DNA of 44,831 nucleotides, from the NCBI GenBank assembly GCA_016203935.1, contig JACQLU010000005.1, positions 1 to 44,831 of the forward strand. Direction: 5' to 3'. Below are positions 22,677-44,609 of this stretch, piece after piece; within the stretch, counting starts at the first letter, position 1, and each line of letters begins with the position of its first letter. The stretch comes from Parcubacteria group bacterium. Lineage in GTDB: Bacteria; Patescibacteriota; JACQLU01. Under the pieces are notes generated by a model that was given only the letters and a program-made list of their open reading frames with translations, did not search any database and was not told the DNA's origin. A program made the position numbers and the translations under genes.

Positions 22677-23939
22677 TTACGAATGAGAATACGAAGGAAG
22701 GGTAAGGAGCGCCTCGGTACCAGTGCGATTCGCGCGCCCTACTCTCAATTGTAGATCATTTATGACATTCATAAAAGCAATGAACGCCTCGTACGGCGAA
22801 CCATAGGGATTAAAGTATTTATGCACGTCGCCATCGGCAAACCATTTGGTGCACATGTAGTAGAAATGATCGGAGGCTTGGAGTCTACGCCAGTCTTCGA
22901 TGAGTGCGAGGTCGCGGGTGGCGAGGACCGCGGGTTCCATGGCGTAGAGTTTGGCGAGCGCGTCATGCTGCAGAGGGTTTCCCCGCCACGCCGAGAGGTC
23001 ACGCTCGACATCGGCCCACGATACAAAATGGGGAATATCCAGTTCCCCGACCGCCGGGTAGCGGGCGATCGCCTCGGAGGGAGTAACAAAATCATTATCG
23101 GGGTGTTTCAAAACTTCTCTCGGGAATGCTCGTAAGAAATCGAAGATACCGGTATCCGCCCACTGGTGCTCACCAAACGTTTCGTAATCCATAAAGAGAT
23201 TGATCACATGACCGTTACCATTGTGCGCCGAGATCCACCGGGCAAATTTTTCGGCGGTCAAGGGATACTCGCTCCACGACTTCGAAGAGAAACGGAAGGC
23301 GATATCATCCGAGAGACGATAGTGCTTGAGCATCACTTTAATCCGGGTGGTATCTTTGGCGCGATGGAGAAAGGTGGGACTTCGCCATCCCAATACATGG
23401 TCGGCTCCCTCGGCGAGTATTCCTAGGAAGCCTAGGTCCTCAACCACGTGGGCAAGTTCATTATTATAGATGAGCTCGGTGTTGCGAAAGACGCGTGGTA
23501 TCTGATGGAAGAGGTGCCGAATGAGTTCATCGTGGAGGCGAACTTGGCTTCGAAACTCCTCCTGGGAATAGAGAAACGCAAGTGAATGGTGTGACGTCTC
23601 GCTCAACACCTCGACGCGGCCGGTATTTGTAAGCATCTGAAATGACCGAAGCACGTCGGGCGCCTCTTTCTGGATCTGCGCTAATACCATTCCGGAAAAA
23701 GAGAAGCTTAACTTAAACAAAGGGAAGGCACGTAAAAGTTCTAAGAGGACCGCATTCGCGGGAAGGTAACTCTTTTCGGCTACTTTTCTTAAGATTCGTT
23801 TATTATTGAGATTGTTCTCACCGGCTTCATTGAAATAATCCGAATCGTGGCCAATATCAAAGACGCGGTATTTTTTAATCCGCAACGGTTGATGCACCTG
23901 AAAATAGAGACAGACTGAGGGCATGGAAAGAAAGTTCAA
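22677..23939 (-). CDS. GH57-family glycoside hydrolase (alpha-amylase/branching-enzyme-like)
   Basis: N-terminal LYFQVHQPLR (GH57 region I-like) and FMDYETFGEH (catalytic Glu region). 420 aa. Confidence 0.8.
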   Translation of the reverse strand: MNFLSMPSVCLYFQVHQPLRIKKYRVFDIGHDSDYFNEAGENNLNNKRILRKVAEKSYLPANAVLLELLRAFPLFKLSFSFSGMVLAQIQKEAPDVLRSFQMLTNTGRVEVLSETSHHSLAFLYSQEEFRSQVRLHDELIRHLFHQIPRVFRNTELIYNNELAHVVEDLGFLGILAEGADHVLGWRSPTFLHRAKDTTRIKVMLKHYRLSDDIAFRFSSKSWSEYPLTAEKFARWISAHNGNGHVINLFMDYETFGEHQWADTGIFDFLRAFPREVLKHPDNDFVTPSEAIARYPAVGELDIPHFVSWADVERDLSAWRGNPLQHDALAKLYAMEPAVLATRDLALIEDWRRLQASDHFYYMCTKWFADGDVHKYFNPYGSPYEAFIAFMNVINDLQLRVGRANRTGTEALLTLPSYSHS

Positions 23940-23979
23940 AATTCTCAGCCTCTGGCTGATCCGCCTTGGCGGAAAAATA

Positions 23980-25191
23980 TCAATAACTCGGGCCTAAAAG
24001 GTGCTGGTAGAGAGTGATGACACTACGGGCGGAGTCTTGCCAAGAGCATCGTGCGGCGTCACGCTTCCCCTCGTCAATAAGCACCTCCCTAAGTACGGGA
24101 TACGAAAGTGCCGCCAAAATTTGATTTGCCATCTCTTCGATATCCCAAAAATCAACTTTCAAGGCGTGGGGAAGCACTTCCCCGACCCCCGCCTGCTTCG
24201 AAATAAGGACCGGCGTGCCGTACGAAAGCGCTTCCAAAGGGGTGATACCGAAAGGCTCGGAGACTGAAGGCATTACAAAAAGGTCGGCCGAACGATATAC
24301 CTCTCCCAATTCCTCATCGCGCAAAAATCCTAAGAAGAGCACCCTGTCGGCGATACCAAGGTAAGCTGCCTCCTCCATAATCTGACGCTCCATGTCACCA
24401 GCGCCAGCCATCAGGAAAAGGATCGAGCGATCGTACGTAAGTACGCGCTTGGCGGCCCTTAGGAAATAATCAGGACCTTTTTGGAGCGTAAGACGACCCA
24501 CAAAGAGGACTATCTTTGTTCCCTCATTTTTGAGAGCGAGGAATCCCGAGGGAGCGCAACGGCGCTCATCATGCTCTACCGCATTATGAATGACAGAAAT
24601 CTTAGTGGGATTAACGCCATAGTGATCAACGACCATTTGCTTGGTAAAGGTACTCACCGTCACTACGCGGTCAGCCGCGTGTAATCCTTCGCGCTCCTTC
24701 TCATACACATACTGATTGATGGTATTGCCGCCGGTGCGATCAAATTCGGTCGCGTGCACATGCACGACCAGCGGTTTGCCGCTTACCTCTTTCGCGGCGA
24801 GGCCCGCGCCGAACGAAAGCCAATCGTGGGCATGAATCACGTCAAAATCCTCTCGCCGCGCGATCTCTTCGGCAAGCCTCGCATACCGGTGCACCTCGGC
24901 AAAAAGTCCCGTGCCATAGAGAGACGAACCGTGCCTGCGCCGGGCCTCTTCATAACCATGCGAGGTGATATAGGGCGTAAGGAGGAGGTCAAGATTTTTC
25001 ACGGTCACCTTCGCCTCCTGATCGGCGAAGAGGAAACGCATGGAAGAGGATGAAACCGGAAGTTTTCTGGGAAGAACGAAAAGAACCTCGACTCCTTCTT
25101 GGGCGAGTGCCTTGGTAAGTCCCAAACAGGCAACGCCAAGACCTCCGCTATTAAAAGGAGGAAATTCCCAGCCGAACATCAAGACGCGCAT
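23980..25191 (-). CDS. GT4/GT5 glycosyltransferase (glycogen synthase-like)
   Basis: MRVLMFGWEFPPFNSGGLGVA N-terminus, and a C-terminal E-x7-E-like region PSVSEPFGITPLEALSYGTPV. Confidence 0.8.
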   Translation of the reverse strand: MRVLMFGWEFPPFNSGGLGVACLGLTKALAQEGVEVLFVLPRKLPVSSSSMRFLFADQEAKVTVKNLDLLLTPYITSHGYEEARRRHGSSLYGTGLFAEVHRYARLAEEIARREDFDVIHAHDWLSFGAGLAAKEVSGKPLVVHVHATEFDRTGGNTINQYVYEKEREGLHAADRVVTVSTFTKQMVVDHYGVNPTKISVIHNAVEHDERRCAPSGFLALKNEGTKIVLFVGRLTLQKGPDYFLRAAKRVLTYDRSILFLMAGAGDMERQIMEEAAYLGIADRVLFLGFLRDEELGEVYRSADLFVMPSVSEPFGITPLEALSYGTPVLISKQAGVGEVLPHALKVDFWDIEEMANQILAALSYPVLREVLIDEGKRDAARCSWQDSARSVITLYQHLLGPSY

Positions 25192-25203
25192 GACTTAGCC
25201 TAA

Positions 25204-25296
25204 ATTCAAAATTCAAAAGTCAAAGGTCAAAAGTAGAGAAGTCGCCGGAGGCGACACATTACTTTTGCATTTTGAACTTTGCCTTTTGACTTTGAA
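25204..25296 (-). terminator. long AT-rich symmetric hairpin with GC core (terminator of the zwf-gnd unit)
   Basis: Core GTCGCC-GGA-GGCGAC (25241-25255). It is flanked by AAAAGTA/TACTTTT and by imperfect arms built from CAAAAG/CTTTTG-like units. Confidence 0.5.
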
Positions 25297-25304
25297 AATA
25301 ATCT

Positions 25305-26225
25305 CTACTTTATCGAGTGTCCTCCAAACTGATTTCGTAGCGCGGAGAGAATTTTTCCCGTGTAACTTGGATTCTTCTCCGAAGCTACTCGAAACGCAAA
25401 GGCGGCTTCGATAATCGGTGCAGGGATGCCGAGTTTGTGTGCGGTCTTAACTGTCCACTCTCCTTCTCCCGTGTGTGCGACCGATCCCGAAACCTCTCTC
25501 AGTTCCTCGCCATACTCCTTAAAGCCGTCACGGAGCCACCGCGTAAGACTCGATTCGATGACGCTGCCGTGATTATAGATATGAGCGATGTGCGCGAGAT
25601 CAATAAGGCCAAGCTCGGCCGACGCTCCTTTCATAATAGCAAATCCCTCGGCTAATGCCTGCATCATGCCGTACTCAATGCCATTATGCACCATTTTGAC
25701 AAAATGTCCTGCGCCCGAGCCTCCGACATAGCCGAATCCTTGCGCAACCGCAAGGTCATTCCAAAGCGGCATGAGTATCTCGTACGCGTCTCTCTCGCCG
25801 CCGACCATGAGCGAAGCGCCGTTTCTTGCTCCTCCCGGCCCTCCCGAGACGCCGACGTCGAGAAAGTGGATGCCCCGCTCTGCAAGTTTTTGGGCACGCG
25901 CGTGCGAATCCTCGTAAAAGGAGTTTCCGCCGTCGACCACGATATCGCCTTCACGAAGCTCCCCGAGTCCCTCGATAACGTCATCCACCGGTTTACCCGC
26001 GGGCACCATGAGCCACACGATTCGCGGCGACGAAGAGAATTCCGCGAGGAGCCTATTAAGCTCGGCCACGGGGTGGATCGTCTTTGCGGCAATCTCTTTG
26101 GCAACCGCGGGGTTACGGTCAAACGCCAAGACCTTCCAGCCTTTTTCGGCAAGACGCAGCACCATATTCTTACCCATCTTGCCAAGGCCGACATAGCCGA
26201 GTTCTTTTTTGAACGGAGGTGTCAT
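25305..26225 (-). CDS. gnd: 6-phosphogluconate dehydrogenase, short (about 300 aa) decarboxylating form
   Basis: LGYVGLGKMGKNM Rossmann motif, GGNSFYEDS, DVGVSGGPGGARNGASLMVGG, HFVKMVHNGIEYGMMQ. The start is placed at MTPPFKK (26225). Confidence 0.85.
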   Translation of the reverse strand: MTPPFKKELGYVGLGKMGKNMVLRLAEKGWKVLAFDRNPAVAKEIAAKTIHPVAELNRLLAEFSSSPRIVWLMVPAGKPVDDVIEGLGELREGDIVVDGGNSFYEDSHARAQKLAERGIHFLDVGVSGGPGGARNGASLMVGGERDAYEILMPLWNDLAVAQGFGYVGGSGAGHFVKMVHNGIEYGMMQALAEGFAIMKGASAELGLIDLAHIAHIYNHGSVIESSLTRWLRDGFKEYGEELREVSGSVAHTGEGEWTVKTAHKLGIPAPIIEAAFAFRVASEKNPSYTGKILSALRNQFGGHSIK

Positions 26226-26267
26226 AGATGTATGAGATAAAAAATGAAGACGCCGCAAATATGATGG

Positions 26268-27695
26268 TCAGGAAGGGCCGATCGAACCCGGCGCGTAGGC
26301 GGTGAGCGGAACGACATCCTTTTGCCACGCGGTAATGATCGAATCGATAAACTTCCAGCTCGCCATGATCTCTTCGGTGCTCACAAACAGGGTTTGATCA
26401 CCCTCGATCGCATCGAGAATCAGTTTCTCGTAGGCATCGAGGAACGACCCCTCGGGGAACGCGTGTTTGTAATCAAACGCGAGGTCGCGTTCCTCAAGCT
26501 CCAGCTTCACTCCGGGCTTCTTCACCCAGAAGGAGGCCTTAACACTCTCGTGGGGCTGGATTTGATAGCGCAGCACATTCTTATAGTGTTCTCCCGCTTC
26601 CGCGCGGGGACAAAGGCAAGGCGAGGGATGGCTAAAGGTCATCGTGACTTCGACTTTGGCTTCGGCGAGGCGCTTGCCGCCTTCGAGGAAAATGGGAACG
26701 CCTTGCCACTTAGGAAGTGCAAGCGCACCGGTGATGCGAAAGTAGGTCTCGGTTTGGGAGCGCGGGTCAACGCCGGTGATGGAACGGTAGCCCTCGTATT
26801 GGCCGCGCGCGGTTCGCGAAACTGCCTCACTCTCGGTAAGCAGGGAAAGCGCTTTTAACGCTGCCGCCCGTGCCCGCCGAATAGCGACGGCATCGAAACT
26901 TCCCGGGTGTTCCATGGTAAAGAGGGCGAGAAGCTGAAGCACGTGGTTCTGCCCCACGTCTCTAAGCGCCCCGACGCCGTCATAGAATTCGCCGCGGCTC
27001 TCCACCCCCTCGGTTTCGAAGAGTTGAATCGCGATCGACTCGACCGAATCGCGATGCCAGCTATCTTCAAAGAGACGATTGGAAAACCGAAAGACGAGCA
27101 CGTTTTGCGCCGTCTCTTTGCCAAGGTAGTGATCGATGCGGTAGACCTGCTCCTCCCGAAAGAGCTTCCCCAAAAGCGCGTCAAGCTCTTGGGCGCTCTT
27201 TAAATCCTTGCCAAACGGTTTTTCCACGATCACCCTTGTCCAGCCTTCCTTATCGCTACACGGCTTGGTAAGACCAGAATCGGAAAGGCGGGCGAGGATA
27301 TCCGGATAGTAACGCGGCGGCACCGAAAGATGGAAAAGTTTATTCGCACAGGTGCGCCACTCTTTATCAACGAGCCCGAGACGCCGCGCGAGCGACTGAT
27401 AGGCTTCGACCTCTTCGAAACGGCCTGCCTGATAGGCGAAGAGTTGGCTAAACGTGCGCACCTCCTCGGGCTGAGAGCCAGGAAGGCGTGATGCGATTTC
27501 GCTTACCATGCCGCGAAAGGCCTCGTCGGTAAGAAAACTTCGCGAAAATCCCACCACCTGAAAAAGCGGTGGAAGAGCCTTCTTACGAAAGAGATGAAAG
27601 AGCGCGGGGATGAGTTTGCGGGTTGCGAGATCACCCGTAGCCCCGAACATAATGAGTATGGTGGGTTTTCGTTCGTTCGGTCTTTCAAATTCCAT
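26268..27695 (-). CDS. zwf: glucose-6-phosphate dehydrogenase (copy 2)
   Basis: MFGATGDLATRK, RIDHYLGKE, RDVGQNHVLQLLAL. By eye it is only roughly half identical to copy 1. Confidence 0.9.
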   Translation of the reverse strand: MEFERPNERKPTILIMFGATGDLATRKLIPALFHLFRKKALPPLFQVVGFSRSFLTDEAFRGMVSEIASRLPGSQPEEVRTFSQLFAYQAGRFEEVEAYQSLARRLGLVDKEWRTCANKLFHLSVPPRYYPDILARLSDSGLTKPCSDKEGWTRVIVEKPFGKDLKSAQELDALLGKLFREEQVYRIDHYLGKETAQNVLVFRFSNRLFEDSWHRDSVESIAIQLFETEGVESRGEFYDGVGALRDVGQNHVLQLLALFTMEHPGSFDAVAIRRARAAALKALSLLTESEAVSRTARGQYEGYRSITGVDPRSQTETYFRITGALALPKWQGVPIFLEGGKRLAEAKVEVTMTFSHPSPCLCPRAEAGEHYKNVLRYQIQPHESVKASFWVKKPGVKLELEERDLAFDYKHAFPEGSFLDAYEKLILDAIEGDQTLFVSTEEIMASWKFIDSIITAWQKDVVPLTAYAPGSIGPS

Positions 27696-32986: not shown

Positions 32987-34294
32987 TTACGAGCGTTTGA
33001 GCGCGAGCGTAAGGTCAGCGACATTCGATCCGGTGGGTCCCGTGACGACCTGATCGTGGGTCTTCACAAAAAAGGAGAACGAGTCGCTTCGTGCAAGATA
33101 CTCGTCCATCATAAGACCCATGCGTGTAGCTTTCTTAAGCGTTATTGTATCACAGATGGCGCCGGCGGCTTCGCTATTGTCCCGACCGTCCGAGGCGAGC
33201 GCGAGCACCAATTCGTTATTCTGAACGAATCGCAATGCCGAGAGCGAAAGTTCTTGGTTGCGTCCGCCTTGACCCTCGCCTTTCACCGTGACGGTGGTCT
33301 CTCCTCCAAAGAGGAGCGCCATCGGTGCTGCGGCCGCGTGCAATTCTTGAGTAATATTTCTCCCCACTTCTTCGGCTTCACCGGTGAGACAGGCGGTGCA
33401 GACGAGCGGGATATAGCCCAGTGTCTTCGCGTGTTCGGCCATCGCGGTGAGGGCGACGGTATTCCCGGCCACCACGAGATTCGTCACCTTCGCAAAAAAC
33501 GTATCTTCCTTCGGTGTCTCGACCAGCTCTCCAAGCGAAAAACCGCATCGCTCCCACACCCGATACTTTTCGATGATCCTTTGCGCATCCGCGGTCGTGG
33601 TTGAATCCTTGACCGTCGGCCCTGAAGCAATGAACTCAAGGTCGTCACCGGGGACGTCGGAAAAGATGAGGGAAATCACACGTGCCGGATAGGCGTACTT
33701 GGCGAGGTTGCCTCCCCGCGCGAGCGAGAGGTGTTTTCTGACCGTGTTGATCTCTTGGATGGTCGCACCGGCCTTAAAGAGACATTCGACCACCGACGAC
33801 TCCTCCTGACAGGTAAAGTTATGCGGCTGACAAAGGAGCGTCGAACCCCCGCCAGAAATGATCATGATGACGACATCCTCCGCGGCAAGACCCGTGAGTA
33901 ACTCAATGATCGCGTGGGTAGCGTCGACGTTGCGTTGGGTGGGAAATGGATGATCACCTTGGTAGCTTTTAATACGGGTGAGCGCTCCCTCGTCGCGGCG
34001 GACGTCGACCACAATGCCCATCGCAATGTGATCGCCTAAGAGTGCCTCGAAGGCGATCGCCGCGTCGAGCGAGCATTTACCAATCCCCACCACAAAAATC
34101 CGCGCACCGATGGTGAGCGGAATCTTGTGGTTTTGGATATAGAGCATGTCCGAAGTTGCCTGCACCGTCCTCGCAATCACTTCTTTGGTATCAATGGCTT
34201 GTAGTCCCGCTTCGGCAATTTCAAGTGCCTCTCTCCGCATGGGCGAGAGGGCGAGCGCCTCTCCATTCTGAATTTTCGTAAATCCGTATTGCAC
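32987..34294 (-). CDS. glycerate 2-kinase (DUF4147/MOFRL family)
   Basis: VVGIGKCSLDAA, GDHPFPTQRN, ISGGGSTLL, GGETTVTVKGEGQGGRNQE, SDGRDNSEAAGAI, TGPTGSNVAD. The start is uncertain: GTG 34294, ATG 34240, or upstream ATG 34381 / TTG 34399, which would overlap the VOC gene. Confidence 0.8.
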   Translation of the reverse strand: MQYGFTKIQNGEALALSPMRREALEIAEAGLQAIDTKEVIARTVQATSDMLYIQNHKIPLTIGARIFVVGIGKCSLDAAIAFEALLGDHIAMGIVVDVRRDEGALTRIKSYQGDHPFPTQRNVDATHAIIELLTGLAAEDVVIMIISGGGSTLLCQPHNFTCQEESSVVECLFKAGATIQEINTVRKHLSLARGGNLAKYAYPARVISLIFSDVPGDDLEFIASGPTVKDSTTTADAQRIIEKYRVWERCGFSLGELVETPKEDTFFAKVTNLVVAGNTVALTAMAEHAKTLGYIPLVCTACLTGEAEEVGRNITQELHAAAAPMALLFGGETTVTVKGEGQGGRNQELSLSALRFVQNNELVLALASDGRDNSEAAGAICDTITLKKATRMGLMMDEYLARSDSFSFFVKTHDQVVTGPTGSNVADLTLALKRS

Positions 34295-34322
34295 AGGGTC
34301 AAGGTTAGAATTGGTGTTGGAT

Positions 34323-34697
34323 TTAATTCCTGTCTTCCCACAGCCCAATGACGTTTCCTTCACTATCGGTGACACGCGCATAGAAACCCATCTCACCAAC
34401 CGCGATTTTTGGCGTCACCAGCCTGCCGCCCGCGGCCTCTACGGACTTGATATACTGATCAACCGATGGAATATTGATCACCAGCACCGGATTGGGTGCT
34501 TTTTCGGACCGCCTATAGAAACCGCCGTTTATCGCACCGGGTTCCTTCGGCATCATCCGGTCGTCAACCGGCACCGTGGTAGCCATGAAGTACTCTTTAT
34601 CCCACGCATTCACTTGCCAGCCAAAGACCTTCTCGTAGAATGACTTAGCGCGCGCCATATCGTCGGCGGGGATCTCGAAATGGACGACTTTGTTCAT
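34323..34697 (-). CDS. VOC (glyoxalase/bleomycin-resistance fold) family protein
   Basis: 124 aa. The N-terminus VVHFEIPADDMARAKSFYEKVFGWQV is typical of the family. Confidence 0.8.
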   Translation of the reverse strand: MNKVVHFEIPADDMARAKSFYEKVFGWQVNAWDKEYFMATTVPVDDRMMPKEPGAINGGFYRRSEKAPNPVLVINIPSVDQYIKSVEAAGGRLVTPKIAVGEMGFYARVTDSEGNVIGLWEDRN

Positions 34698-35029: not shown

Positions 35030-35329
35030 ATGGCAAAGAAATTATACGTGGGAAGTCTTCCCTACGAGACGACCGGAGATCAGCTACGCGACCTTTTCGC
35101 CCAAGCTGGCCAGGTAGCGTCGGCGCAAGTGATTAGCGACAAATTTTCTGGTCGAAGCAAAGGATTTGGCTTCGTCGAGATGTCAACCGACGAGGAAGCT
35201 CAAAAAGCGATTGATATGTTTAATGGGAAGGAGATGGGCGGACGGACCATTGTCGTGAACGAAGCTCGTCCCATGACCGAACGAAAGCCGCGTGGCGACT
35301 TCGGCGGCGGACGAAGGGATAGGTACTAA
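35030..35329 (+). CDS. RRM-type RNA-binding protein with Gly/Arg tail
   Basis: RNP-2 KLYVGSL and RNP-1 KGFGFVEM. C-terminal RGDFGGGRRDRY. Confidence 0.85.
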   Translation: MAKKLYVGSLPYETTGDQLRDLFAQAGQVASAQVISDKFSGRSKGFGFVEMSTDEEAQKAIDMFNGKEMGGRTIVVNEARPMTERKPRGDFGGGRRDRY

Positions 35330-35351
35330 TCGTTATCGAGACATCGCTCAC

Positions 35352-35380
35352 AAAACCCACCGCAAGGTGGGTTTTGTTTA
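35352..35380 (+). terminator. rho-independent terminator of the RRM gene
   Basis: AAAACCCACC-GCAA-GGTGGGTTTT followed by GTTTAATATTTT. Confidence 0.8.
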
Positions 35381-36081: not shown

Positions 36082-36087
36082 TATAAT
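36082..36087 (+). promoter_or_regulatory. candidate -10 box upstream of the giant ORF
   Basis: Perfect TATAAT 41 nt before the ATG at 36128. The -35 is only weak (TTCGTT at 17 nt). No clear SD at the ATG. Confidence 0.3.
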
Positions 36088-36127: not shown

Positions 36128-39100
36128 ATGCCCGAAAAAGATACAGGAGCGAACACTCCAGAGAAAGATCTTAACAAGCGGGAACAGAAGGGGAAGGTTG
36201 AACACAGCAGCGAATCTCCCGTGGAAAGGACTCAGGAAAGAGCGCGCCTCTCCCCAGAACAACTCCTTACACAAGAACTCGGAGAACTTTCTCGTTCTAC
36301 CGAGTTGATTCTGTCTATAGTACGTCATCGTCCACCAGAAGAAGGACCTCATGCGCTCCCTTCAGAAGAGGACGTCTCTCGTCCGCCCCCCTGGCACACA
36401 ATCGAGCAAGCAAAAGAAACATTGCGACAAGAAGCAGAGACTCTTGATACCATTTGGGATCAATTACTAGAGGGGGCTGTAGGGGCATTACTCAAAGAAC
36501 TGGAAAGTTTTGAGCTTCGGTCACTTCATGACATCGAAAGGATGAACACGCTCCTTGAGAACATACGATCGGTAATAAGAAACGCCGAGGAAGTCCTTGC
36601 GAACCACGAAGCCACACAGCAACGCGCCGATTCACTCTACCAACGTTATCAGCGAGAGCGCCTACATGATGCGGGCTTTACATCGACCGACGAACTACGC
36701 AACGCATTGGATGCAAAACTAGACGAAGCCATTCAGCTCGATCGGTCATGGATTCGCAAACTATTCCCTTCACACAAAAAAAAGCTTACTGAAGCCGAAA
36801 CGCAAGCCCAGCGACTGCAAACCCTTACGTTCCTTATGACTCCATCGACCATATCGACTGAGGTCAAGAGCGCACATGGAAGATCAGAACTCGAAGAATT
36901 TGAATCACGTCTCGCTGAGATAATGGCTAAGAGAGTGGCCCGTTTCTATGAAGAGCGTCTTTCGGCAGTGAAAGAACAGCTTTCCCAAGAGCCGACCACT
37001 CTTGATGATGAAACCATTGATCGCCTCAATGATGATTTCCTTGCTCGCTTTGTAACTCCCTTGCTTGAACAATCGTCAACACGATTTAAGCCGGAAACCA
37101 TCGCGCGCGGGTTTGCGGTGCTTAAAAGATCTTTCCATCTGGGGAGATATCCTATGCGGTATGATCCTGCGGAGGTTCGACTTCATCAAGACACGAAACA
37201 AGAATACGAACAGTTACCGGAACGCCTCCAATGGTTGCTTAATGCCTTTACAATCCAACGGGAGGGATCCGGCGATGAACGATTTGAAAAGTACGCCGAG
37301 TTCGTCGCGCGCGCGCCGTGGTATACGGCGCGTGAGAAACTTTCTTCAGCCTACCTCGCATTCATACAAGCGACCGCTGACATCGGACGTGGCGCCTACA
37401 CCCTTGGCGCGACGGACATGGCCAGTAAGGCCATAGAAATAAAGAGGATGGTCGATCGGATGATTGGCCAATTCGACGAACGGCGCTGGATAGCGTTTCG
37501 CGATAATGATGGGATCCGTGAACAATTCGGCGAGAGCGCCTTAAGCTCAGCCGAACAACTCTTAAGACGAGAGGTAGCGGATCGTCTCATCCGCGAGACG
37601 CGAGAACGAGGAGAAGACGTCAAACTTGGATTTATACTCTCTTCGCTCCGCGATGCGGCGACCCTACCGATCGTTCTTCTCAATTCCTATCGAGCGCGCG
37701 ACCATTCCGGGGATAATCCCTTTCTCTCGGACATCCACCCTTCTACAGAGACGAATCTTTTTCAAACCATAGACGGATTGTCCGCCGCGGAGCTTTCCGC
37801 CCTTGAGAGAAAAGAGGTCCCGGGGCTCATGGAATTGATCAGGCTCATCAAGGAGAATCCCGAAACCTTCCGCGATCACGCACATACCAATGAAGTGACG
37901 GGCAAACAGGAAGAGAATCCTATCTATAAAAAAATTCATAGAGAACTTGGCGCGCTTGCGCTCCATTTCTTTCGGCGTGGCGATGAGAAGATGCGCCGAT
38001 ACCTTCTTACCCTCTTCTATCGAATGGATGCGGACCTAGAGGGTGAAATATGTACCGCTATCAAAGATTCGATGCATGATACCAACGACTCTGAATACCA
38101 TAAGCTCGCCCTCGCCATCTTCGAAAACCAGATACTCCATCGCTTCAATGATAACGCCATCTCGCCCTATCGCGAGATACTCCGCGATACCGATGATGTG
38201 GTGGTATTCGAGCAGACGCTCGAAGGTCTTGCCAAAACAATCCAAGACGTTTCGATGCGGAAACGCGACCCTGAGTATCCGAGAGAGTGGAGACTCCGAT
38301 TGGAAAGCTTCATGGACTCCTTGCGCGATGCGCTGGAAGCAGGGATCGACAAAATCCTCCGCCTCGCTTCCGTAAAAGGGATGCTCCATCTCCTCGAAGG
38401 ATACACCGCCTTGGGCGTCGATACTCCCAAATTTCGCGCCTTCCTCGCCTCGGATCTCCTTAAGGAGCGCGTCGCCGAGATGATACAATCGCATCCCCAC
38501 GAAACACCAGAGATCCTTGCCCGCCGTTTCATGGAGTTGAACGATCAGGAAGCGCTTGCGCGCCTGTTCGAAGGATTCTCCTCGCTAGACCAACCTGATG
38601 CACGCGGAGCTGCCAGCGGATCGCTTACCGAAATCCTCACGGAGCACAAAATCCGGGGGGTCGACAATACAGGCAACATAGTGAAATACGAAACCCTTCG
38701 TGACACCCTTGCCGCCCAGCTTGGATCGAAGAATCTGCCACTCGCGCGTCACATCGCTCAAATCTTTGTAAAAACAATAGATGAGATGCACAAAGCCTTC
38801 TCTCTGCGAAAATCTGTATTAGAACAGGAGTGGCGTTCTCCGTATGAGGCTGATACCGCTACCCTCATTGTAAAAGCCGGAGAGAAAGCTCTCGCAGAGA
38901 GTGACCCCATTCTGCGCTACCAAGGATGCATGATGGTCGCTCGATTGGAACCGCCGCCTATGGGGTATCACCATGCGCTCGTCTCTCTGGCCGGCGACCT
39001 CGAAACGATCACGGCGTATGAGAAAGGAAGCGCTGAAAAACTGGCAATGTGCATAGCGGAGGTGGCATCAACACTCGAAGACGATGATATCCGTTACGTA

Positions 39101-41641
39101 CTCTCTCATCTCGAATCATTTTCTCTGCTCGGACAAGATACGCTGAAAGAGGCGCTACTTACCCTCGCGCTTATCTCAACTCGTTTCCCGCCAGATATAT
39201 CAGCAGAGATCGCGTCGCGTTTTGAAAATCTTTCGCTTCCCCATAAAACTTTGGAGAAGCTCGTAGAAGATCGTGATTCGCTCTCTCACGAAAATTGGGC
39301 AAGACTCTTGACGGCGTACCTGATGATTGAGGGGGGTGATTGGGTTCAGATCGAACAAACAAGGAAAGAAGAGGTACAAAATCTGTTCTCAATCCGTGAA
39401 CACCCGGAACATGCCTCGTTCTGTTTTGAAAAACTGTATGCCCAGTGGCACGCGTTTTTAGAAGATGCAACTACGGAACGCCTTCCCCTGCAAGCCGCGG
39501 TGATTGCTCATACCGTACACAATGAGGGTGGTGCAGGGCCGCTTAAATATATTGAATCACTGGCGTTCCTGATGCACGAGCTGCGTATAAGCTTTCGCGA
39601 TCCGCACGTAGTGACGCGGACAAAAAGTGAGATTAAGTCAGGTTTCCTTAGACAGGAGGAACGCTTCGCGAAGGAACGGTGGAGCGAGGAAGATAAATCG
39701 TTCTTTTACGATCTCGCCGCCGAAATTCTCCATGCTGCTCCCAGCCTCTATAGTGAATTTGCGCAATTATTTGATACGCTCTCTCCGAAAGAATTGAAGG
39801 GATTCGCCAAAGAGCAACTCCCATTCTATCAAGCACAATTGGTTCTCCTGCAAAGCGATGAGAAGGAGCACGCCTCGTACAACCCGCGTGAGCTCGTCAG
39901 GGTACGAAGGGGTCTTAGGAGTTTTATCGAAGAGCTTACCGAATCGACGGATGAATCGCGAGCCGGTGTCTTTGCGCGGGAGCGGGAACGCCTGCTCACG
40001 GTGCTACAGCAAGGTTTCGAAACGCGTTTCGGGCTTCTCAAAGTACCCGAGGAACTCGACCACGAGGGTATTCGTTCGATCCAAAACATCACCCGCTACC
40101 TTGGGAATATCGCCAAGCGAGATCAGGAGAAAGAGACCCTCCTTGGGTGGTATTTGGCGCTTAAACTCCACGGCAGGTGGGAAGATTATCGGCGAGGAAA
40201 CGCAGTAGACCCTGCCGAATTTTTCGAAGGCGAGCGCCTACGTCTCTTGGAACGTCACTTAAGAGAACGAGGCAGACTCGACGGAGTGACCGCCGAGAAG
40301 CTTGGTGTTGGAAAAGAGACGTTCCCCCGATTCCGAGAACTTTTGCAAGAAGAAACCATAAGTAACCTCATCGGCAACGTGGAGACTATCGATGTCAAGC
40401 TTAGGAACGTAACCGGCAATCTCGAAGCTTTAGCAGATCCCGATACCTACACCGACGAAAATGATAAAAACCTCCTCGTGCTCCTCAATGCACACGGCGG
40501 AAAGTTGGTGAATAGAGTCCTTGCCAAAACTTATCAAGCGACCAGTGGTAAGGCGATAGAATTTTCAGAAAAGGAACGGAGCGTGCAAGGATCACTCGCA
40601 GCGACGTTTAAGGTAGAAGCGTGGACCTCCGAAAAAGTGAAAGAACTCCAAGAGCGCGCCAAGACCATAAGTCTCGTGGTGGGTGTCCTTGAGCACCTTA
40701 AGGAACGAAAGATAGACGAAGGCATCGAAGAACTCCGCACACGACTTAGTCCATCCCCACAGATTATTGAAATATTTCAACGCCTCGGCGAACCATTCAA
40801 GACCGAATCGGGCGCGCTGGCGCTCTCGCAGGATCTTGCGTATCTAGAAAATATCATTGTGAAAGATGCGGACAAGCTGGGAGAGGATGAAAAGCGCCTG
40901 CTTTCCGAGTATCTCGCAAGCATTCGAGAAACGATGCAAAGACTCGAGGAGAGTTTAGATCGCATCAAAGAAGGGTTCGGTAAAATGAAAAAGAGCGTCC
41001 ATGCCTCAGCCGATGAGGCGCTTCGTAACCGACTCGCTGAGATTGAAAAAGCGCTCTTTACCAAAGCGTCGACTACCGAGATCATGAGCCGAATAACTGG
41101 CAATCTCAACCTTATCATCGAGAATATACGACAGTGTCTGGGATGTTTACGAAAAGAGATCAATAACGATACCAATCTGACCTTTGGTGACTCGAATAAG
41201 TTTTTCGTGATGAGCCAATCTCCGGAAGTCAAGCGAAGCATTGCTGATCAGATCGTGATGCTGGTCCCGATCGAACGCGCGGAGCACGAGCGCGAAATGA
41301 GTTTTGTCTTTGATACACTCTATGGTTCCAAATCTTCCGACGTACTCATCGCGCATGTGATGGTAGTGTATAAAAAGTTCTCGCAACTGAAACGAGAGTT
41401 CCCCGAGGTTCGTCTCTCCTTATTGGTTACGCAGGCGGCGCTCGCAAGTGCGGGTATGACTGCCGAGCTACTTGCGAAACGTCTTACCGACGAGCAACAC
41501 CTCGCCGCGGTGTTCGAGATGGCGCCAGAAGTTACGGTGGATATTCCTTCCTCCGCTGCAGGAGATCCCTACCTTGAAATAGGGGGAGGTTCACGATCAA
41601 CCGGCCCCAGAGTGGTCAATAATGGACTTCTTATTTATTGA
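36128..41641 (+). CDS. giant hypothetical protein, 1,837 aa, no recognised domain
   Basis: Uninterrupted 5,514-nt ORF with protein-like, Leu/Glu/Arg-rich composition throughout. All antisense ORFs are short and Arg/Ser-rich. No signal peptide, TM segment, Walker A, HEXXH or internal repeat is visible by eye. Confidence 0.75.
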   Translation: MPEKDTGANTPEKDLNKREQKGKVEHSSESPVERTQERARLSPEQLLTQELGELSRSTELILSIVRHRPPEEGPHALPSEEDVSRPPPWHTIEQAKETLRQEAETLDTIWDQLLEGAVGALLKELESFELRSLHDIERMNTLLENIRSVIRNAEEVLANHEATQQRADSLYQRYQRERLHDAGFTSTDELRNALDAKLDEAIQLDRSWIRKLFPSHKKKLTEAETQAQRLQTLTFLMTPSTISTEVKSAHGRSELEEFESRLAEIMAKRVARFYEERLSAVKEQLSQEPTTLDDETIDRLNDDFLARFVTPLLEQSSTRFKPETIARGFAVLKRSFHLGRYPMRYDPAEVRLHQDTKQEYEQLPERLQWLLNAFTIQREGSGDERFEKYAEFVARAPWYTAREKLSSAYLAFIQATADIGRGAYTLGATDMASKAIEIKRMVDRMIGQFDERRWIAFRDNDGIREQFGESALSSAEQLLRREVADRLIRETRERGEDVKLGFILSSLRDAATLPIVLLNSYRARDHSGDNPFLSDIHPSTETNLFQTIDGLSAAELSALERKEVPGLMELIRLIKENPETFRDHAHTNEVTGKQEENPIYKKIHRELGALALHFFRRGDEKMRRYLLTLFYRMDADLEGEICTAIKDSMHDTNDSEYHKLALAIFENQILHRFNDNAISPYREILRDTDDVVVFEQTLEGLAKTIQDVSMRKRDPEYPREWRLRLESFMDSLRDALEAGIDKILRLASVKGMLHLLEGYTALGVDTPKFRAFLASDLLKERVAEMIQSHPHETPEILARRFMELNDQEALARLFEGFSSLDQPDARGAASGSLTEILTEHKIRGVDNTGNIVKYETLRDTLAAQLGSKNLPLARHIAQIFVKTIDEMHKAFSLRKSVLEQEWRSPYEADTATLIVKAGEKALAESDPILRYQGCMMVARLEPPPMGYHHALVSLAGDLETITAYEKGSAEKLAMCIAEVASTLEDDDIRYVLSHLESFSLLGQDTLKEALLTLALISTRFPPDISAEIASRFENLSLPHKTLEKLVEDRDSLSHENWARLLTAYLMIEGGDWVQIEQTRKEEVQNLFSIREHPEHASFCFEKLYAQWHAFLEDATTERLPLQAAVIAHTVHNEGGAGPLKYIESLAFLMHELRISFRDPHVVTRTKSEIKSGFLRQEERFAKERWSEEDKSFFYDLAAEILHAAPSLYSEFAQLFDTLSPKELKGFAKEQLPFYQAQLVLLQSDEKEHASYNPRELVRVRRGLRSFIEELTESTDESRAGVFARERERLLTVLQQGFETRFGLLKVPEELDHEGIRSIQNITRYLGNIAKRDQEKETLLGWYLALKLHGRWEDYRRGNAVDPAEFFEGERLRLLERHLRERGRLDGVTAEKLGVGKETFPRFRELLQEETISNLIGNVETIDVKLRNVTGNLEALADPDTYTDENDKNLLVLLNAHGGKLVNRVLAKTYQATSGKAIEFSEKERSVQGSLAATFKVEAWTSEKVKELQERAKTISLVVGVLEHLKERKIDEGIEELRTRLSPSPQIIEIFQRLGEPFKTESGALALSQDLAYLENIIVKDADKLGEDEKRLLSEYLASIRETMQRLEESLDRIKEGFGKMKKSVHASADEALRNRLAEIEKALFTKASTTEIMSRITGNLNLIIENIRQCLGCLRKEINNDTNLTFGDSNKFFVMSQSPEVKRSIADQIVMLVPIERAEHEREMSFVFDTLYGSKSSDVLIAHVMVVYKKFSQLKREFPEVRLSLLVTQAALASAGMTAELLAKRLTDEQHLAAVFEMAPEVTVDIPSSAAGDPYLEIGGGSRSTGPRVVNNGLLIY

Positions 41642-41650
41642 AAATGAAGT

Positions 41651-41673
41651 GAGATCGCTCATCGTGCGATCTC
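41651..41673. terminator. 8-bp perfect hairpin between convergent genes
   Basis: GAGATCGC-tcatcgt-GCGATCTC, 10 nt after the giant ORF stop and 40 nt from the Gmad2 gene stop. A T-rich tail is present only on the minus strand. Confidence 0.45.
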
Positions 41674-41713
41674 AAATCAAAATCTCCCCCTTCCTATAAC
41701 CATGTAACCATTA

Positions 41714-42169
41714 TTAGAACAGTACCGGAATCCTCACTTCATCCGCGTTCTGGGGAAGGTCGGAGGGGTTATCTTTCTCGAGTACCAAGGTGCCGCTTGG
41801 AGTTGAGGGTGGAGTGAAAATGAGCGTTGCCTGAAAGGGTACAAAATTAGTGGTCATCCAATCAGAGAGCGCGCTTGCTGTGGTGGTGGCAATCTCTACA
41901 TCGTTGCCATCGAGGAGGCGGATTGGAAATGACGCCTCAAAGTACCATGGCCCCCGCGCCTGACCCAAAATAGTGAGGGGGCTCGTGATGACTGAATTAG
42001 GAAGGGGCGCCGAAACCGAGATATCAGGATTGGGAGTGGCGGTAGCACTTACGGTGGGTGTAGGCGATGCCTCTGGTTCCGGTGGGGTACCTTTCTTATT
42101 AAGTGACAATACCGCCGCACCAATGACGATGACTATGGCAATGAGCCACATGAGTTGTTTATTGGTCAT
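41714..42169 (-). CDS. membrane-anchored Gmad2 (Ig-like) domain protein
   Basis: N-terminal TM, a Pro/Thr linker, then ITSPLTILGQARGPWYFEASFPIRLLD...WMTTNFVPFQATLIF, typical of Gmad2. Confidence 0.7.
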   Translation of the reverse strand: MTNKQLMWLIAIVIVIGAAVLSLNKKGTPPEPEASPTPTVSATATPNPDISVSAPLPNSVITSPLTILGQARGPWYFEASFPIRLLDGNDVEIATTTASALSDWMTTNFVPFQATLIFTPPSTPSGTLVLEKDNPSDLPQNADEVRIPVLF

Positions 42170-42218: not shown

Positions 42219-42626
42219 CTACTCTGATTTGGGTTTCAAGTCAAGGCAAACAGAGTTGATGCAGTAGCGCTTGCCGGTAGTAGCGGGACCATCGTCGAAG
42301 AGGTGGCCGAGATGGGAACCGCATTGGCCGCATATCACTTCGGTGCGGTTCATCCCGTGACTCGTATCGGGACGGAGTTTCACTCTCCCTTCTGCCACCG
42401 GCGCATCAAAGCTGGGCCAGCCAGTGCCGGAATCAAACTTGGTGTCGGAAGAAAAGAGTTCATTGCCGCAGGCCGCACAGACATACATCCCTTTCTCTTT
42501 AGAATTGTAGAATTTTCCACTGAAAGGCTGTTCAGTCCCCTTTTCGCGGAGTACCTGATACTGCTCGGGGGTGAGCTTCTTTTTCCATTCTGGCTCGTTT
42601 TTTGGCATTTGGTTTGGTTGATTCAT
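42219..42626 (-). CDS. msrB: peptide-methionine (R)-S-oxide reductase
   Basis: Two CxxC zinc motifs ([19 protein letters not shown]), GWPSF, and the catalytic RYCINS. Confidence 0.9.
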
Positions 42627-42797: not shown

Positions 42798-44609
42798 CTA
42801 AAGGTACTCAATAAGCCACTCGGCGTCGGTATCAAGAATCGTAAAGGCAATCTCGTCCACATACGCTCCTCCTTTAAAGGTGGCGGCGTTCTCAAGGAGC
42901 TTACGGAAGTTTTCAAGAAGTTTCTTTTGTTCGTTCTTACGCGCTTTTGCTCCGCGCTCTAGGAAATTGGTGAGTCCACGACCCAAGCCTTGATTCATTA
43001 TATGCCCATCGTTCGTTAGTTGCTCCACGATACGTATGAGATCCTGCCAGTTGGTGATGAAGGTAAAGGCTATAGTTTCCTCGCTCGCCTGACCCGCTCT
43101 GTCGGTCGCTTTCACCGTAAGTTCATGTTCGCCAATTGCGGCATCGTAGAACGTAATCGGGGTTTCATCGAGCGGCACCCCATCGAGAAGATATTCAACT
43201 GACGCAACACCCGATCCTTCATCTTCTATTATAACTGGCGGGTCAAGAGGGATGCCATGAAGGTACTCGCTCTCATCCGTCGTGAAGGTGATAACGGGCG
43301 GATTAAAATCGGTCGCAATCGCCTCGGCATCGTCAAAATCAGCCTCGGGATTATTGAGAAGTTGATCAAAGAATCGTCCGGCAGCCACAAACTGCTGATC
43401 ATCGCTTCCCAGATACGCATCGATCACCTCCTCGGTAATCTCATCCATCCGCGCTTCATCCAGAATCTCGCCTTCGAGAGTGATGCTGCCATCGTTATTG
43501 GCAATCTCATGAACTGTTAAAATGTCATTCGTTTCCCCTCTTGTAGCGATCTCATCAATAAATTGATAGAGATAATCCTCACCGAGAAATTCTTCGTCCT
43601 CTGTATCTTGCGCATATATTGTTTTCCCACCTATAAATCTTGATAAGACGGATCTTAATTCTTTCCATAAACTCTGAAAATCTGCAAAAAATCTTTCTGC
43701 GGTATCGTTTAGTACAATGGTATTCGTGGGAATGGTGAAATCAGGGCTTCTAAGAAATGATGATAAATAAGCTATTGCTGATTCAAAAAACTGATTAAAA
43801 GTCGTGGTTGGTTGAAAGGTTTGTATATTTCGCGAAGAGGCCCATTTACGGACCGCAAATAGATGGACTTTCAGCCACGACGCCCATTTCCTGCTGATTT
43901 CTTTAATTCTTGCGTCGGTGAGTAAACCACTCTTGCGACTAATTAAGGATCCCCCTGTTGTAGATGTCAGGATATTGAAAGAATCTATCGAAGCTTCGTG
44001 AATAACTTCTGGCATTACAGTGACCCGGAGTCTTTTAAGAAACTCTTGATCATCTTGAAATTGACGATAAAAGAATGCATCTATTTCAAATTCAGCACCT
44101 GCATGCGATCTACCACTCTGTGCGTTATACGATGAGGGCCCATGCGCATATCTTTCTGCAATTTGATGTCCAATCCAACCATATGTAGAAAAGATATTTT
44201 CTGGTACTGTTCGTTCGGGATGCCGTTCAGAAAAAACTCTTTGGGCGGTTAACTTACCAAATGTAAAATCTCCAGCTCTATTATCATCATGGTCAACATC
44301 GAGAATCCGCGCTATGCCATCATGAAATTCTATAAGATTGTGTCCATAATCAAAGGCGCGAGGATTGGGCACTAAAGGATTTCTTCCGAGACCTAAAAAC
44401 GTATTTCTCACTGCAAATGCAGAAACCATATCAGGAGCGTGGGCTGCTTCAAGAAATCTTTCCCAACGTATATCTCTTACTCCATAGATTTCTTGGAACA
44501 CGCGATCATTAATGACTAGATGCGTCAGAGGCCCCCACGCCCTGGCTGGAAAAGGCAGCAGGCTCGCCAACATCAAAGAGAGAATACTAACTTTTTGTCG
44601 AGTTCTCAT
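42798..44609 (-). CDS. secreted S1-P1 nuclease / zinc-dependent phospholipase C superfamily-like protein with Ig-like and helical C-terminal modules
   Basis: Signal peptide ending ARA, followed by WGPLTH (Trp at +1 and His at +6, as in mature P1 nuclease WGALGH). Further His/Asp clusters (AAHAPD, DYGHNLIEFHD, GWIGHQIAERYAHG). A C-terminal beta-sandwich-like segment and a helical tail. Confidence 0.6.
   Translation of the reverse strand: MRTRQKVSILSLMLASLLPFPARAWGPLTHLVINDRVFQEIYGVRDIRWERFLEAAHAPDMVSAFAVRNTFLGLGRNPLVPNPRAFDYGHNLIEFHDGIARILDVDHDDNRAGDFTFGKLTAQRVFSERHPERTVPENIFSTYGWIGHQIAERYAHGPSSYNAQSGRSHAGAEFEIDAFFYRQFQDDQEFLKRLRVTVMPEVIHEASIDSFNILTSTTGGSLISRKSGLLTDARIKEISRKWASWLKVHLFAVRKWASSRNIQTFQPTTTFNQFFESAIAYLSSFLRSPDFTIPTNTIVLNDTAERFFADFQSLWKELRSVLSRFIGGKTIYAQDTEDEEFLGEDYLYQFIDEIATRGETNDILTVHEIANNDGSITLEGEILDEARMDEITEEVIDAYLGSDDQQFVAAGRFFDQLLNNPEADFDDAEAIATDFNPPVITFTTDESEYLHGIPLDPPVIIEDEGSGVASVEYLLDGVPLDETPITFYDAAIGEHELTVKATDRAGQASEETIAFTFITNWQDLIRIVEQLTNDGHIMNQGLGRGLTNFLERGAKARKNEQKKLLENFRKLLENAATFKGGAYVDEIAFTILDTDAEWLIEYL

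Follow-up and report, generated by a model that had tools for sequence, protein, structure and literature searches.

The stretch of DNA analysed here, referred to as the window, spans 44,831 nucleotides, and its largest open reading frame corresponds to a gene annotated at NCBI only as a hypothetical protein. From its ATG start, the frame runs without interruption over 1,837 codons and takes up 12.3% of the window, the runner-up encoding 837 residues, which agrees with the first-pass annotation, where a single unbroken ORF filling 12% of the window had been described. Frame 0 was preferred in all 200-codon blocks when codon usage was scored by log-likelihood; the ORF is real and carries coding signal over its full length. 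The TATAAT hexamer that had been assigned to the gene is indeed present, and it lies in an 80-nt divergent intergenic region common to this gene and the PEBP gene; it was missing from the list produced by the consensus scan because it has no -35 match. The hairpin reported after the stop codon was also found (9 bp, G+C-rich, between the big gene and the convergent Gmad2 gene), but its T-run is on the minus-strand side, which fits a terminator of the Gmad2/msrB unit, or a bidirectional one. An Rfam search of the window gave no match. The features of the locus and of the encoded protein are collected in Table 1.

Table 1. Coordinates of the gene, its flanking signals and the parts of the encoded protein, in window positions.
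Feature	Position	Strand	Basis or remark
TATAAT hexamer	36082..36087	+	41 nt 5' of the ATG; read directly
Hypothetical protein HY459_00230 (NCBI label)	36128..41641	+	complete gene, 1,837 codons plus stop
aa 1-60, K/E/S/P-rich N-terminal tail	36128..36307	+	composition
aa 61-1046, variable Leu/Glu/Arg-rich N-terminal region	36308..39265	+	presumed helical
aa 1047-1645, all-helical conserved module, ~600 aa	39266..41062	+	conservation, AlphaFold2 DSSP
D1437-P-D1439 motif, with T1420 and D1422 ahead	40436..40444	+	100% conserved, 126 sequences
S1561-G1562-A1563 loop, followed by invariant D1569	40808..40816	+	invariant
aa 1646-1837, predicted divergent GNAT-fold domain	41063..41638	+	two independent AlphaFold2 models
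C1670-L-G-C1673, end of helix a1	41135..41146	+	C1670 invariant, C1673 93%
N1679-N-D-T1682, start of a2	41162..41173	+	invariant; placed by model DSSP
D1729-T-L-Y1732-G1733, end of b4 and b4-a3 loop	41312..41326	+	D1729, Y1732 and G1733 98-100%
Long b6-b7 loop with conserved S1809, D1813, Y1815, E1817, R1823	41552..41596	+	conservation, model
Hairpin, 9 bp, G+C-rich	41650..41674	.	between the big gene and the convergent Gmad2 gene

The protein is acidic. Its first 60 residues are rich in K, E, S and P, as had been recognized by eye (43% versus 27% over the whole protein), and this tail is probably disordered, judging from its composition. A pattern scan of the 1,837 residues found no Walker A, HExxH, GxGxxG or GxSxG motif, and the CLGC at residue 1670 is the sole CxxC among a total of six cysteines, as expected from the earlier statement that nucleotide-binding loops, metalloprotease motifs and Cys clusters were missing. 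The maximum of the Kyte-Doolittle profile (19-aa window) was 1.58 and the protein is, therefore, devoid of a TM segment; no signal-like segment was seen, also in line with that inspection. Likewise, neither self-BLAST nor phmmer revealed the internal repeats whose absence had been noted, and no meaningful tandem repeat was detected. Searches of Pfam, NCBIfam, PADLOC, PHROGs and PDB sequences with the protein, with the profile of its conserved module or with the isolated C-terminal domain returned nothing above noise, the best library match being DYN_lid (E 0.0019, under the family cut-off), and no characterized family was matched with confidence over most of the length. The notion that the protein lacks any recognizable domain was, thus, confirmed in the sequence libraries but not by structure, where the last ~190 residues are predicted to adopt a GNAT fold (see below).

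The designation of the protein as an orphan had to be abandoned. A family census by an exhaustive HMMER scan of clusters made at 50% identity matched 267 cluster representatives (that is, 266 besides the query), 213 of them at E<=1e-30. A word-index homology search had returned the query alone, as would be expected for a lineage-restricted orphan or a decaying ORF with no conserved function, but this result was a search artefact, and the census, together with the intact homologs and the dN/dS values described below, refutes that reading, to which virtually no credence can be given. Every member of the family bearing a name is called "hypothetical protein", and a literature search found no paper describing the family. 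The hosts with confident labels are exclusively CPR lineages, including Parcubacteria, Microgenomates, Berkelbacteria, Dojkabacteria, Gracilibacteria, Peribacteria and Saccharibacteria, and two motif patterns match 98 GTDB species representatives that span most CPR classes; among viral contigs, no relative was detected. Members are usually 1,400-2,500 aa long. By sequence homology, the protein is, thus, a member of a large and unnamed family extending across the CPR/Patescibacteria.

Homologs are mostly intact and evolve under purifying selection. The 60 complete homolog ORFs have a median length of 1,613 aa, with the conserved module at the extreme C-terminus, and fragmentation is not routine, since disruptions were found at 3 of 79 loci, while a further two are TGA-recoded. 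Comparison of related pairs yielded a dN/dS of ~0.08-0.11 in the module and of 0.15-0.22 in the N-terminal part. These values, together with the conservation of the module across the radiation and the mostly full-length homologs, substantiate the initial proposal that the gene is kept by selection. In contrast, the genes for PEBP, Gmad2 and MsrB, suggested as possible conserved neighbours, are not kept beside the homologs: when the ORFs flanking 77 loci were clustered, no neighbour family appeared at more than 7 of them, and bulk Pfam annotation, applied to 113 flanking ORFs, revealed neither a functional theme nor a recurrent cell-wall gene. The neighbours are cytoplasmic housekeeping genes.

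A TM or signal-like segment is absent from 152 of 155 family members, the other three showing a weak hydrophobic window, and the family is soluble and cytoplasmic, as far as this can be read from the sequences. This bears directly on the possibility that the protein is an exported or surface factor for host interaction, similar to the surface giants of Vampirococcus, a role close to the cell-cell or host-interaction factor initially contemplated. The fast evolution of the N-terminal region would suit such a role, as would the fact that CPR bacteria are episymbionts and that links between giant proteins and attachment to the host have been described (PMC8080830). The Vampirococcus giants are membrane-localized and carry WD40, PKD, integrin or fibronectin domains (PMC8080830); here, no adhesion or repeat domain was found, the protein is acidic and probably helical, and both the lack of export signals and the housekeeping nature of the neighbours argue against a surface location, which is considered very improbable.

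The N-terminal and C-terminal parts of the protein differ in their conservation. Upstream of about residue 1047, most of the sequence could be aligned only in a few close homologs (P0002, P0004 and P0025, with 36-38% identity), and, in an iterative HMM search, 35 of 131 family members proved homologous in the N-terminal part; the N-terminal half differs among lineages, forming an arm variable in both length and sequence. The C-terminal module of ~790 aa (residues 1047-1835) is common to the family, with 32-47% identity, and it contains more than 30 residues that are invariant in 126 sequences, mostly polar and mainly D, E, N, C, K, R, S, T and Y. An AlphaFold2 model of 800 aa (residues 1038-1837) was obtained with a pLDDT of 87.3, and its DSSP assignment describes residues 1038-1645 as helical plus two small beta hairpins. 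When the whole 800-aa model was submitted to Foldseek, no fold match for this helical module was found in PDB or BFVD (best E 0.27 and 0.023, respectively; probability of the helical hits <0.25), so that this conserved stretch of ~600 aa stands out as helical and structurally unmatched. Besides the DPD motif, it contains the invariant loops GAG (1135-1137) and SGA, and Q1508 and E1555 are further invariant residues. The latter (S1561-A1563, residues 524-526 of the model) is the only stretch of the module with pLDDT <50, which suggests a flexible yet invariant loop. A guess that it might hold a carrier-protein Ser received no profile or fold support.

The change in character perceived near the end of the protein corresponds to an alpha/beta domain that starts at about residue 1650 in the AlphaFold2 models. 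Among the strand-like runs singled out by eye, VMLVPIE and RLSLLVTQ are predicted as strands, but LIAHVMVVYKKF is predicted as a helix. The order of elements, b1-a1-a2-b2-b3-b4-a3-b5-a4-b6-b7, was the same in the model of the module and in that of the isolated domain (pLDDT 88.7, pTM 0.85). All 50 top Foldseek PDB matches to the isolated domain were GNAT-fold acyltransferases, among them NAA60, Hpa2, RimI, AAC(6') and SSAT, as well as NatD and Ard1, with probability 0.69-1.00 (at least 0.93 in 42 of the 50), E values from 1e-3 to 1e-2 (best 1.1e-3) and target-normalized TM of 0.17-0.52. With an rmsd of 5-8 A, a TM of 0.38-0.52 and an identity of ~10%, the resemblance to these GNATs is remote. 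Similarly, the only compact matches of the 800-aa model in PDB and BFVD were GNATs, although none of these reached significance. Hence, according to the models, the last ~190 residues have GNAT topology, with a likeness at the fold level only: no GNAT family of Pfam was matched at E<=10 by the full protein, 15 modules or 22 isolated domains, and the domain profile gave 0 matches against PDB at E<=10.

In canonical GNATs, the Q/R-x-x-G-x-G/A sequence (motif A) in the b4-a3 loop binds the pyrophosphate of acetyl-CoA, and the a1-a2 region forms a wall of the acceptor site. The b4-a3 loop of our protein lacks this motif, whose pattern is matched only at residue 377, outside the domain, and throughout the family the sequence of the loop is D-x-x-Y-G-x-[KRHQ]-[ST]-[SPA]. 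Like the GNAT superfamily, the domain has its conserved residues in regions used for acceptor and donor binding, since they concentrate, according to the predicted secondary structure, in a1-a2, b4, b4-a3 and b6-b7. Unlike GNATs, it presents the Cys pair on a1, of which C1670 is invariant and C1673 is 93% conserved, and it is fused behind ~1,650 aa of presumably helical protein. The earlier suspicion that an enzymatic domain, if any, would lie in the last ~230 residues was well placed, given that both the GNAT-like domain and the CLGC motif with its invariant Cys are found there. Two further resemblances considered here, that of a glycyl-radical motif in the C-terminal R..G.R.VSG and that of a PEP carboxylase resemblance in the Gly-rich end, received no profile or fold support.

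Because the conserved tail folds like a GNAT acyltransferase, the protein is probably a giant cytoplasmic enzyme. More specifically, we favour a soluble, cytoplasmic, CPR-specific acyltransferase-like enzyme built on a large helical substrate-binding body, a proposal that we judge about equally likely to be right or wrong. Its three components would be an N-terminal helical arm of ~1,040 aa that evolves fast, the helical module of ~600 aa and the GNAT-fold domain of ~190 aa. The latter would be the catalytic part: an activated donor, by default assumed to be an acyl-CoA, would give up its acyl group, and an amine or hydroxyl on a large substrate, kept in place by the helical module and the arm, would receive it. 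Neither the neighbouring genes nor any fused domain of known type offered a clue to this substrate. In the model, the invariant residues fall at the acceptor-binding and catalytic regions of GNATs, and putative roles can be proposed for some of them: E1665, N1666, R1668, C1670 and NNDT (1679-1682) would be candidates in the a1 helix and the a1-a2 loop, D1729 on strand b4 a candidate general base, Y1732 and G1733 candidates in the b4-a3 loop, and Y1815, E1817 and R1823 candidates in the b6-b7 loop.

The GNAT fold also occurs in enzymes that do not use CoA and in non-catalytic modules, and both circumstances have to be considered. In the second case, the protein would be structural, a large helical platform or scaffold (organizing, for instance, the cytoplasm, division or the nucleoid) whose GNAT-like tail is a pseudo-enzyme binding a ligand or partner. 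About 90% of the length is probably helical (residues 1038-1645 by model, the rest by composition), the helical part resembles nothing enzymatic, the N-terminal arm is variable and the canonical CoA loop is missing, all of which would be compatible with a scaffold. However, the invariant residues are mostly of the nine types named above and cluster in the substrate and catalytic regions of the GNAT fold and in short loops of the helical module, a pattern typical of catalysis or precise ligand binding and not of a scaffold, and the low dN/dS of the module points in the same direction. A purely structural role is, thus, regarded as unlikely.

In the first case, the donor might be an aminoacyl-tRNA, as for FemX/FemABX, Leu/Phe-tRNA protein transferase or the MprF synthase domain, the acceptor being a cell-envelope precursor or protein N-termini. 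These GNAT-fold families also lack the acetyl-CoA loop. In addition, in the complete Berkelbacteria genome CP011213.1, the homolog is flanked by a Mur ligase gene and mraY, inside the dcw cluster, and FtsW and undecaprenyl-diphosphate synthase appear as single flanking genes at some other homolog loci. However, the dcw position is restricted to one lineage, no cell-wall gene recurs among the 113 flanking ORFs, Fem, Leu/Phe-transferase and MprF structures are missing from the 50 best structural matches, and Fem proteins contain tandem GNAT domains whereas only one is present here. An aminoacyl-tRNA donor, therefore, seems quite doubtful.

Returning to the acyltransferase-like enzyme, its proposed architecture can be compared with that of known systems. 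NatA, NatB and NatC are eukaryotic or archaeal complexes made of a GNAT catalytic subunit and a large helical auxiliary subunit, and, by analogy, a small GNAT unit might here be positioned on a macromolecular substrate by a very large all-helical body, in this case within a single polypeptide. No likeness to the auxiliary subunits Naa15, Naa25 or Naa35 was found with the 800-aa model (NatC 7l1k_B, E 2.4, probability 0.02), and an association with the ribosome would be pure conjecture. Pat/PatZ is likewise a bacterial protein of several domains that ends in its GNAT domain, although our protein is about twice as long; the N-terminal domain of Pat resembles an NDP-forming acyl-CoA synthetase (alpha/beta) and is recognized by Pfam, whereas Pfam and NCBIfam found no such domain in our protein nor in four long homologs. 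The GNAT toxins of toxin-antitoxin pairs, such as TacT and AtaT, are stand-alone proteins of ~160-180 aa with an adjacent antitoxin gene, in contrast to a tail of a 1,400-2,500-aa protein with no conserved neighbour; TacT and AtaT2 were only weak Foldseek matches of the 800-aa model (E 2-2.7).

The CPR/Patescibacteria account for a large share of bacterial diversity, and a function has yet to be assigned to the majority of their distinguishing protein families (PMC6744442). Of the 106 families enriched in CPR that Meheust et al. (2019) described, 51 are widespread throughout the CPR (PMC6744442). The present family resembles these in being CPR-wide and poorly annotated, but it is soluble, while one or more TM helices are predicted in 76 of the 106 and a relation to the envelope is common (PMC6744442). 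Under strong purifying selection, it has members in most CPR classes, ranging from Parcubacteria of groundwater to Saccharibacteria in samples associated with animals and humans, and each gene costs these tiny genomes 4-7 kb, even though the family is named in no database. A more ambitious interpretation, which we consider improbable, would be that of a lineage-defining CPR innovation, a core enzyme of the cytoplasm that combines a novel ~600-aa helical fold, to which the invariant GAG, DPD and SGA loops would belong, with a GNAT-derived catalytic domain that replaced the acetyl-CoA loop, gained the invariant Cys and performs a chemistry, or acts on a substrate, new to GNATs. The ribosome, a tRNA or an envelope precursor would then be candidate substrates, and such an innovation could make up for a pathway missing from CPR bacteria. 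In any event, a cryptic GNAT-fold tail, as predicted by the models, and a defined set of invariant residues turn an opaque ORF into a testable enzyme hypothesis and, since Saccharibacteria are now genetically tractable (PMC10633639), this hypothesis can be tested directly.

Some homologs are particularly long or have C-terminal extensions. Pfam recognized no domain in the long ones (2,187-2,798 aa), and the C-terminal extensions of L049 and L057 matched nothing in Pfam or PDB, so that our guess of a canonical GNAT in the L057 extension was not supported by these searches. About 1,600 aa beyond the module, the extension of L066 contains an ABC1 kinase-like domain, possibly a separate gene that has been read through.

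The 1,837-aa product of the largest gene in the window had been regarded, in a first-pass annotation made from the sequence alone, as an orphan, a view that did not survive an exhaustive homology search. Pfam, NCBIfam, PADLOC, PHROGs and PDB sequences gave no significant match, a word-index protein search with the full-length protein retrieved only the query itself, and one with an N-terminal fragment did not retrieve even that. When residues 638-1837 were compared by phmmer with 1.84 billion cluster representatives, 267 proteins matched at E≤1e-3 (213 at E≤1e-30). The word-index result is an artefact of the search. More than 260 clusters of the family escaped it, so a "no homolog" outcome from this tool alone is unsafe for long, compositionally biased proteins. 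Most of the matched proteins are 1,500-2,500 aa long and align with query positions ~410-1198 (residues 1047-1835, denoted here as the module) at 32-47% identity; near-full alignments of 1,200 residues were restricted to a few cluster representatives (P0002, P0004, P0025). The shorter representatives are fragments, since their 90%-identity clusters also hold members of 1,439-1,738 aa. Every family member is named "hypothetical protein" at its source (HY459_00230 in NCBI for the protein studied here), none carries a Pfam domain, no relative appeared among the viral contigs searched, and a literature search found no paper describing the family. Meheust et al. (PMC6744442) reported 106 families enriched in CPR (Patescibacteria), the majority of them unannotated.

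The earlier observation was thus partly confirmed, orphan status being wrong and the ORF and its features real. The window spans one entire contig of a Parcubacteria-group MAG. The gene starts with ATG, covers 12.3% of the window (12% had been stated) and is followed in size by that of an 837-aa pyruvate phosphate dikinase; it looks coding throughout, as a codon-usage model trained on the window's other genes preferred frame 0 in each 200-codon block. In keeping with the earlier negative statements, the protein lacks Walker A, HExxH, GxGxxG and GxSxG motifs and internal repeats, its sole CxxC is the CLGC at residue 1670, it contains six Cys, and all hydrophobic windows are at or below KD 1.58. 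The proposal that it might be a host-interaction factor found no support, and such a role at the cell surface is considered highly improbable. A TATAAT does precede the gene. A 9-bp hairpin does follow the stop codon, but its T-run sits on the minus strand, so that a terminator acting on the convergent Gmad2/msrB unit, or in both directions, is no poorer an interpretation than a terminator of the large gene.

The distribution of the family was derived from a scan of GTDB species representatives with motif seeds, in which 98 loci were confirmed and 79 kept for analysis. These belong to Nomura-, Harrison-, Falkow-, Magasanik-, Kerfeld-, Levy-, Ames-, Davies-, Woese- and Shapirobacteria, Berkelbacteria, Dojkabacteria, Gracilibacteria, Peribacteria and many Saccharibacteria, including Nanosyncoccus. 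The module was also found in MAGs labelled "uncultured Gammaproteobacteria bacterium" (loci L009, L012, L015, L017, L022, L060, L071, L076 and others); as these sequences are interspersed with others labelled CPR, to which they are up to 83% identical, that taxonomy looks like a placeholder or an error. One locus (L028) comes from a MAG labelled "Bacillota". Two paralogs (L057 and L073) occur on separate contigs of one Saccharibacteria MAG (CAMJKD01), one of them with a 201-aa extension.

Complete ORFs were recovered at 60 loci (median 1,613 aa), nearly all with a stop codon no more than 60 nt from where the module ends, and a frameshift affects only three loci, one of which also has an added TAA. 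Two homologs from "Candidatus Peribacteria" MAGs (L077 6001-8274 and L078 6001-8277) contain 18 and 13 in-frame TGA, respectively, and no in-frame TAA or TAG. Most of these TGAs align with Gly residues of the large protein. Genetic code 25 would give this pattern and is probably used by both genomes, which may be mislabelled as Peribacteria. In pairs with unsaturated dS, the module gave Nei-Gojobori dN/dS ratios of 0.077-0.113, and the N-terminal part ratios of 0.147-0.221; purifying selection acts on both halves, the N-terminal one being about twice as relaxed. N-terminal homology was detected by iterative HMM search in only 35 of 131 members. The notion of an orphan or decaying ORF is refuted. 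At three loci the ORF continues beyond the usual C-terminus: L049 8362-11175 (938 codons), L066 7878-13271 (1,798) and L057 8398-9000 (201). An ABC1 atypical-kinase-like domain (E 1.3e-10) lies in the L066 extension, part of an ORF of more than 4,395 codons, and the other two extensions have no Pfam or PDB match.

An alignment of the last 900 residues of 126 sequences revealed more than 30 positions at least 98% conserved, mostly polar. Conserved residues include T1420, D1422, D1437, D1439, Q1508, E1555, S1561, G1562 and D1569 in the helical module and N1666, R1668, C1670, N1679, N1680, D1681, T1682, K1691, S1704, D1707, D1729, Y1732, G1733, S1809, Y1815, E1817 and R1823 in the C-terminal domain. 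In an AlphaFold2 model of residues 1038-1837 (57-sequence alignment; mean pLDDT 87.3, pTM 0.70), the chain is helical up to residue ~1645, except for two small hairpins, and α/β over the last ~190 residues; the invariant SGA loop is the sole low-confidence stretch within the module. Foldseek returned nothing significant for this model (best E 0.27 in PDB, 0.023 in BFVD), the only compact matches with non-trivial probability being GNAT (acyl-CoA N-acyltransferase fold) acetyltransferases.

An enzymatic or binding domain had been surmised at the C-terminal end, and a predicted GNAT-fold domain is what appears there. Residues 1634-1837, modelled separately (pLDDT 88.7, pTM 0.85), have the predicted order β1-α1-(loop or α2)-β2-β3-β4-α3-β5-α4-β6-β7, and the best 50 PDB matches were all GNAT-fold acyltransferases, among them NAA60, Hpa2, RimI, NatD, AAC(6'), SSAT, Ard1 and malonyl-CoA decarboxylase (Foldseek probability 0.69-1.00, E from 1.1e-3, target-normalised TM ≤0.52, identity ~10%). 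A profile of 22 isolated domains had no PDB match at E≤10, nor did these domains match Pfam GNAT families at that threshold. The canonical Q/R-x-x-G-x-G/A loop (motif A) is missing, the β4-α3 loop reading D-x-x-Y-G-x-[KRHQ]-[ST]-[SPA] across the family. As the fold agrees while sequence profile and motif A do not, the protein is filed as a GNAT variant and not as a plain member; on these models, the assignment holds at fold level only. Placed by inference on the predicted elements, E1665, N1666, R1668, C1670 and C1673 fall on α1 and just past it, NNDT at the start of α2, D1729 on β4, Y1732 and G1733 at its end, and S1809, D1813, Y1815, E1817 and R1823 in the long β6-β7 loop. In GNAT structures these regions serve to bind acceptor and pantetheine arm, and the general base is usually located in them. 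A scaffold with a pseudo-enzyme tail, favoured by the missing motif A but not by these conserved residues, appears unlikely.

The best fit, which we hold to be about evenly balanced between right and wrong, is a cytoplasmic enzyme in which a divergent GNAT-derived domain, ending the helical module, would carry out the catalytic step, while the conserved module and a variable helical arm would probably hold a large substrate; acyl-CoA or aminoacyl-tRNA are candidate donors. There is a loose resemblance in architecture to the NatA/B/C complexes or to Pat, with no relationship between the helical parts. The protein is a radiation-wide, strongly constrained, unnamed giant, for which a concrete, testable enzymatic hypothesis can now be put forward.

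The large gene is bordered in the window by a divergent PEBP gene on one side and by convergent Gmad2 and msrB genes on the other. The homolog of the complete Berkelbacteria genome CP011213.1 (L001 8001-13469) is found within the dcw cell-wall/division cluster, flanked by a Mur ligase and mraY, at the usual position of murF; this placement was seen in one lineage only. A Fem-like aminoacyl-tRNA transferase is judged improbable, more so than the scaffold. In another genome the homolog is flanked by ruvC and grpE-dnaK-dnaJ. Each neighbour family was shared by 7 of 77 loci at most and, scanned in bulk against Pfam, 113 flanking ORFs yielded scattered housekeeping genes with no functional theme, so the gene appears to stand alone, without a conserved partner.

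Features of the window and their coordinates
Feature	Position	Remarks
611-aa ORF	5332-7167	same strand as, and after, the sigma factor gene (region 5332-9321)
503-aa ORF	7232-8743	same strand as, and after, the sigma factor gene
ECF-type sigma factor	8740-9321
Sugar-metabolism block	14933-27695	large for a CPR genome
Glucose-6-phosphate dehydrogenase paralogs	14933-16387, 26268-27695
ROK kinase	19039-19881
Alpha-amylase	19999-21609
GH57	22677-23939
GT4/GT5 glycogen-synthase-like gene	23980-25191
6-phosphogluconate dehydrogenase	25305-26258
Glycerate-kinase ORF and glyoxalase gene	32987-34697	77-nt overlap from first TTG
RRM-domain RNA-binding protein	35030-35377 region	99 aa, E 8e-24
Terminator hairpin	35350-35377	strong, 12 bp, after the RRM-domain gene
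TATAAT	36082-36087	precedes the large gene
Large gene	36128-41641 (+)	1,837 aa
Hairpin	41650-41674	9 bp
Gmad2	41714-42169	convergent to the large gene
msrB	42219-42626	convergent, one unit with Gmad2
603-aa protein	42798-44609	hydrophobic N-terminus, otherwise unannotated

Among the remaining features, the 503-aa and 611-aa ORFs, which have no Pfam match, may encode an anti-sigma factor or regulon partners. The true start of the glycerate-kinase gene is probably downstream of the first TTG, given the overlap with the end of the glyoxalase gene. The one match of the 603-aa protein, to FIMAH, falls below threshold (E 3.9e-4), and the GC3 of its gene (0.39) is below that of its neighbours.
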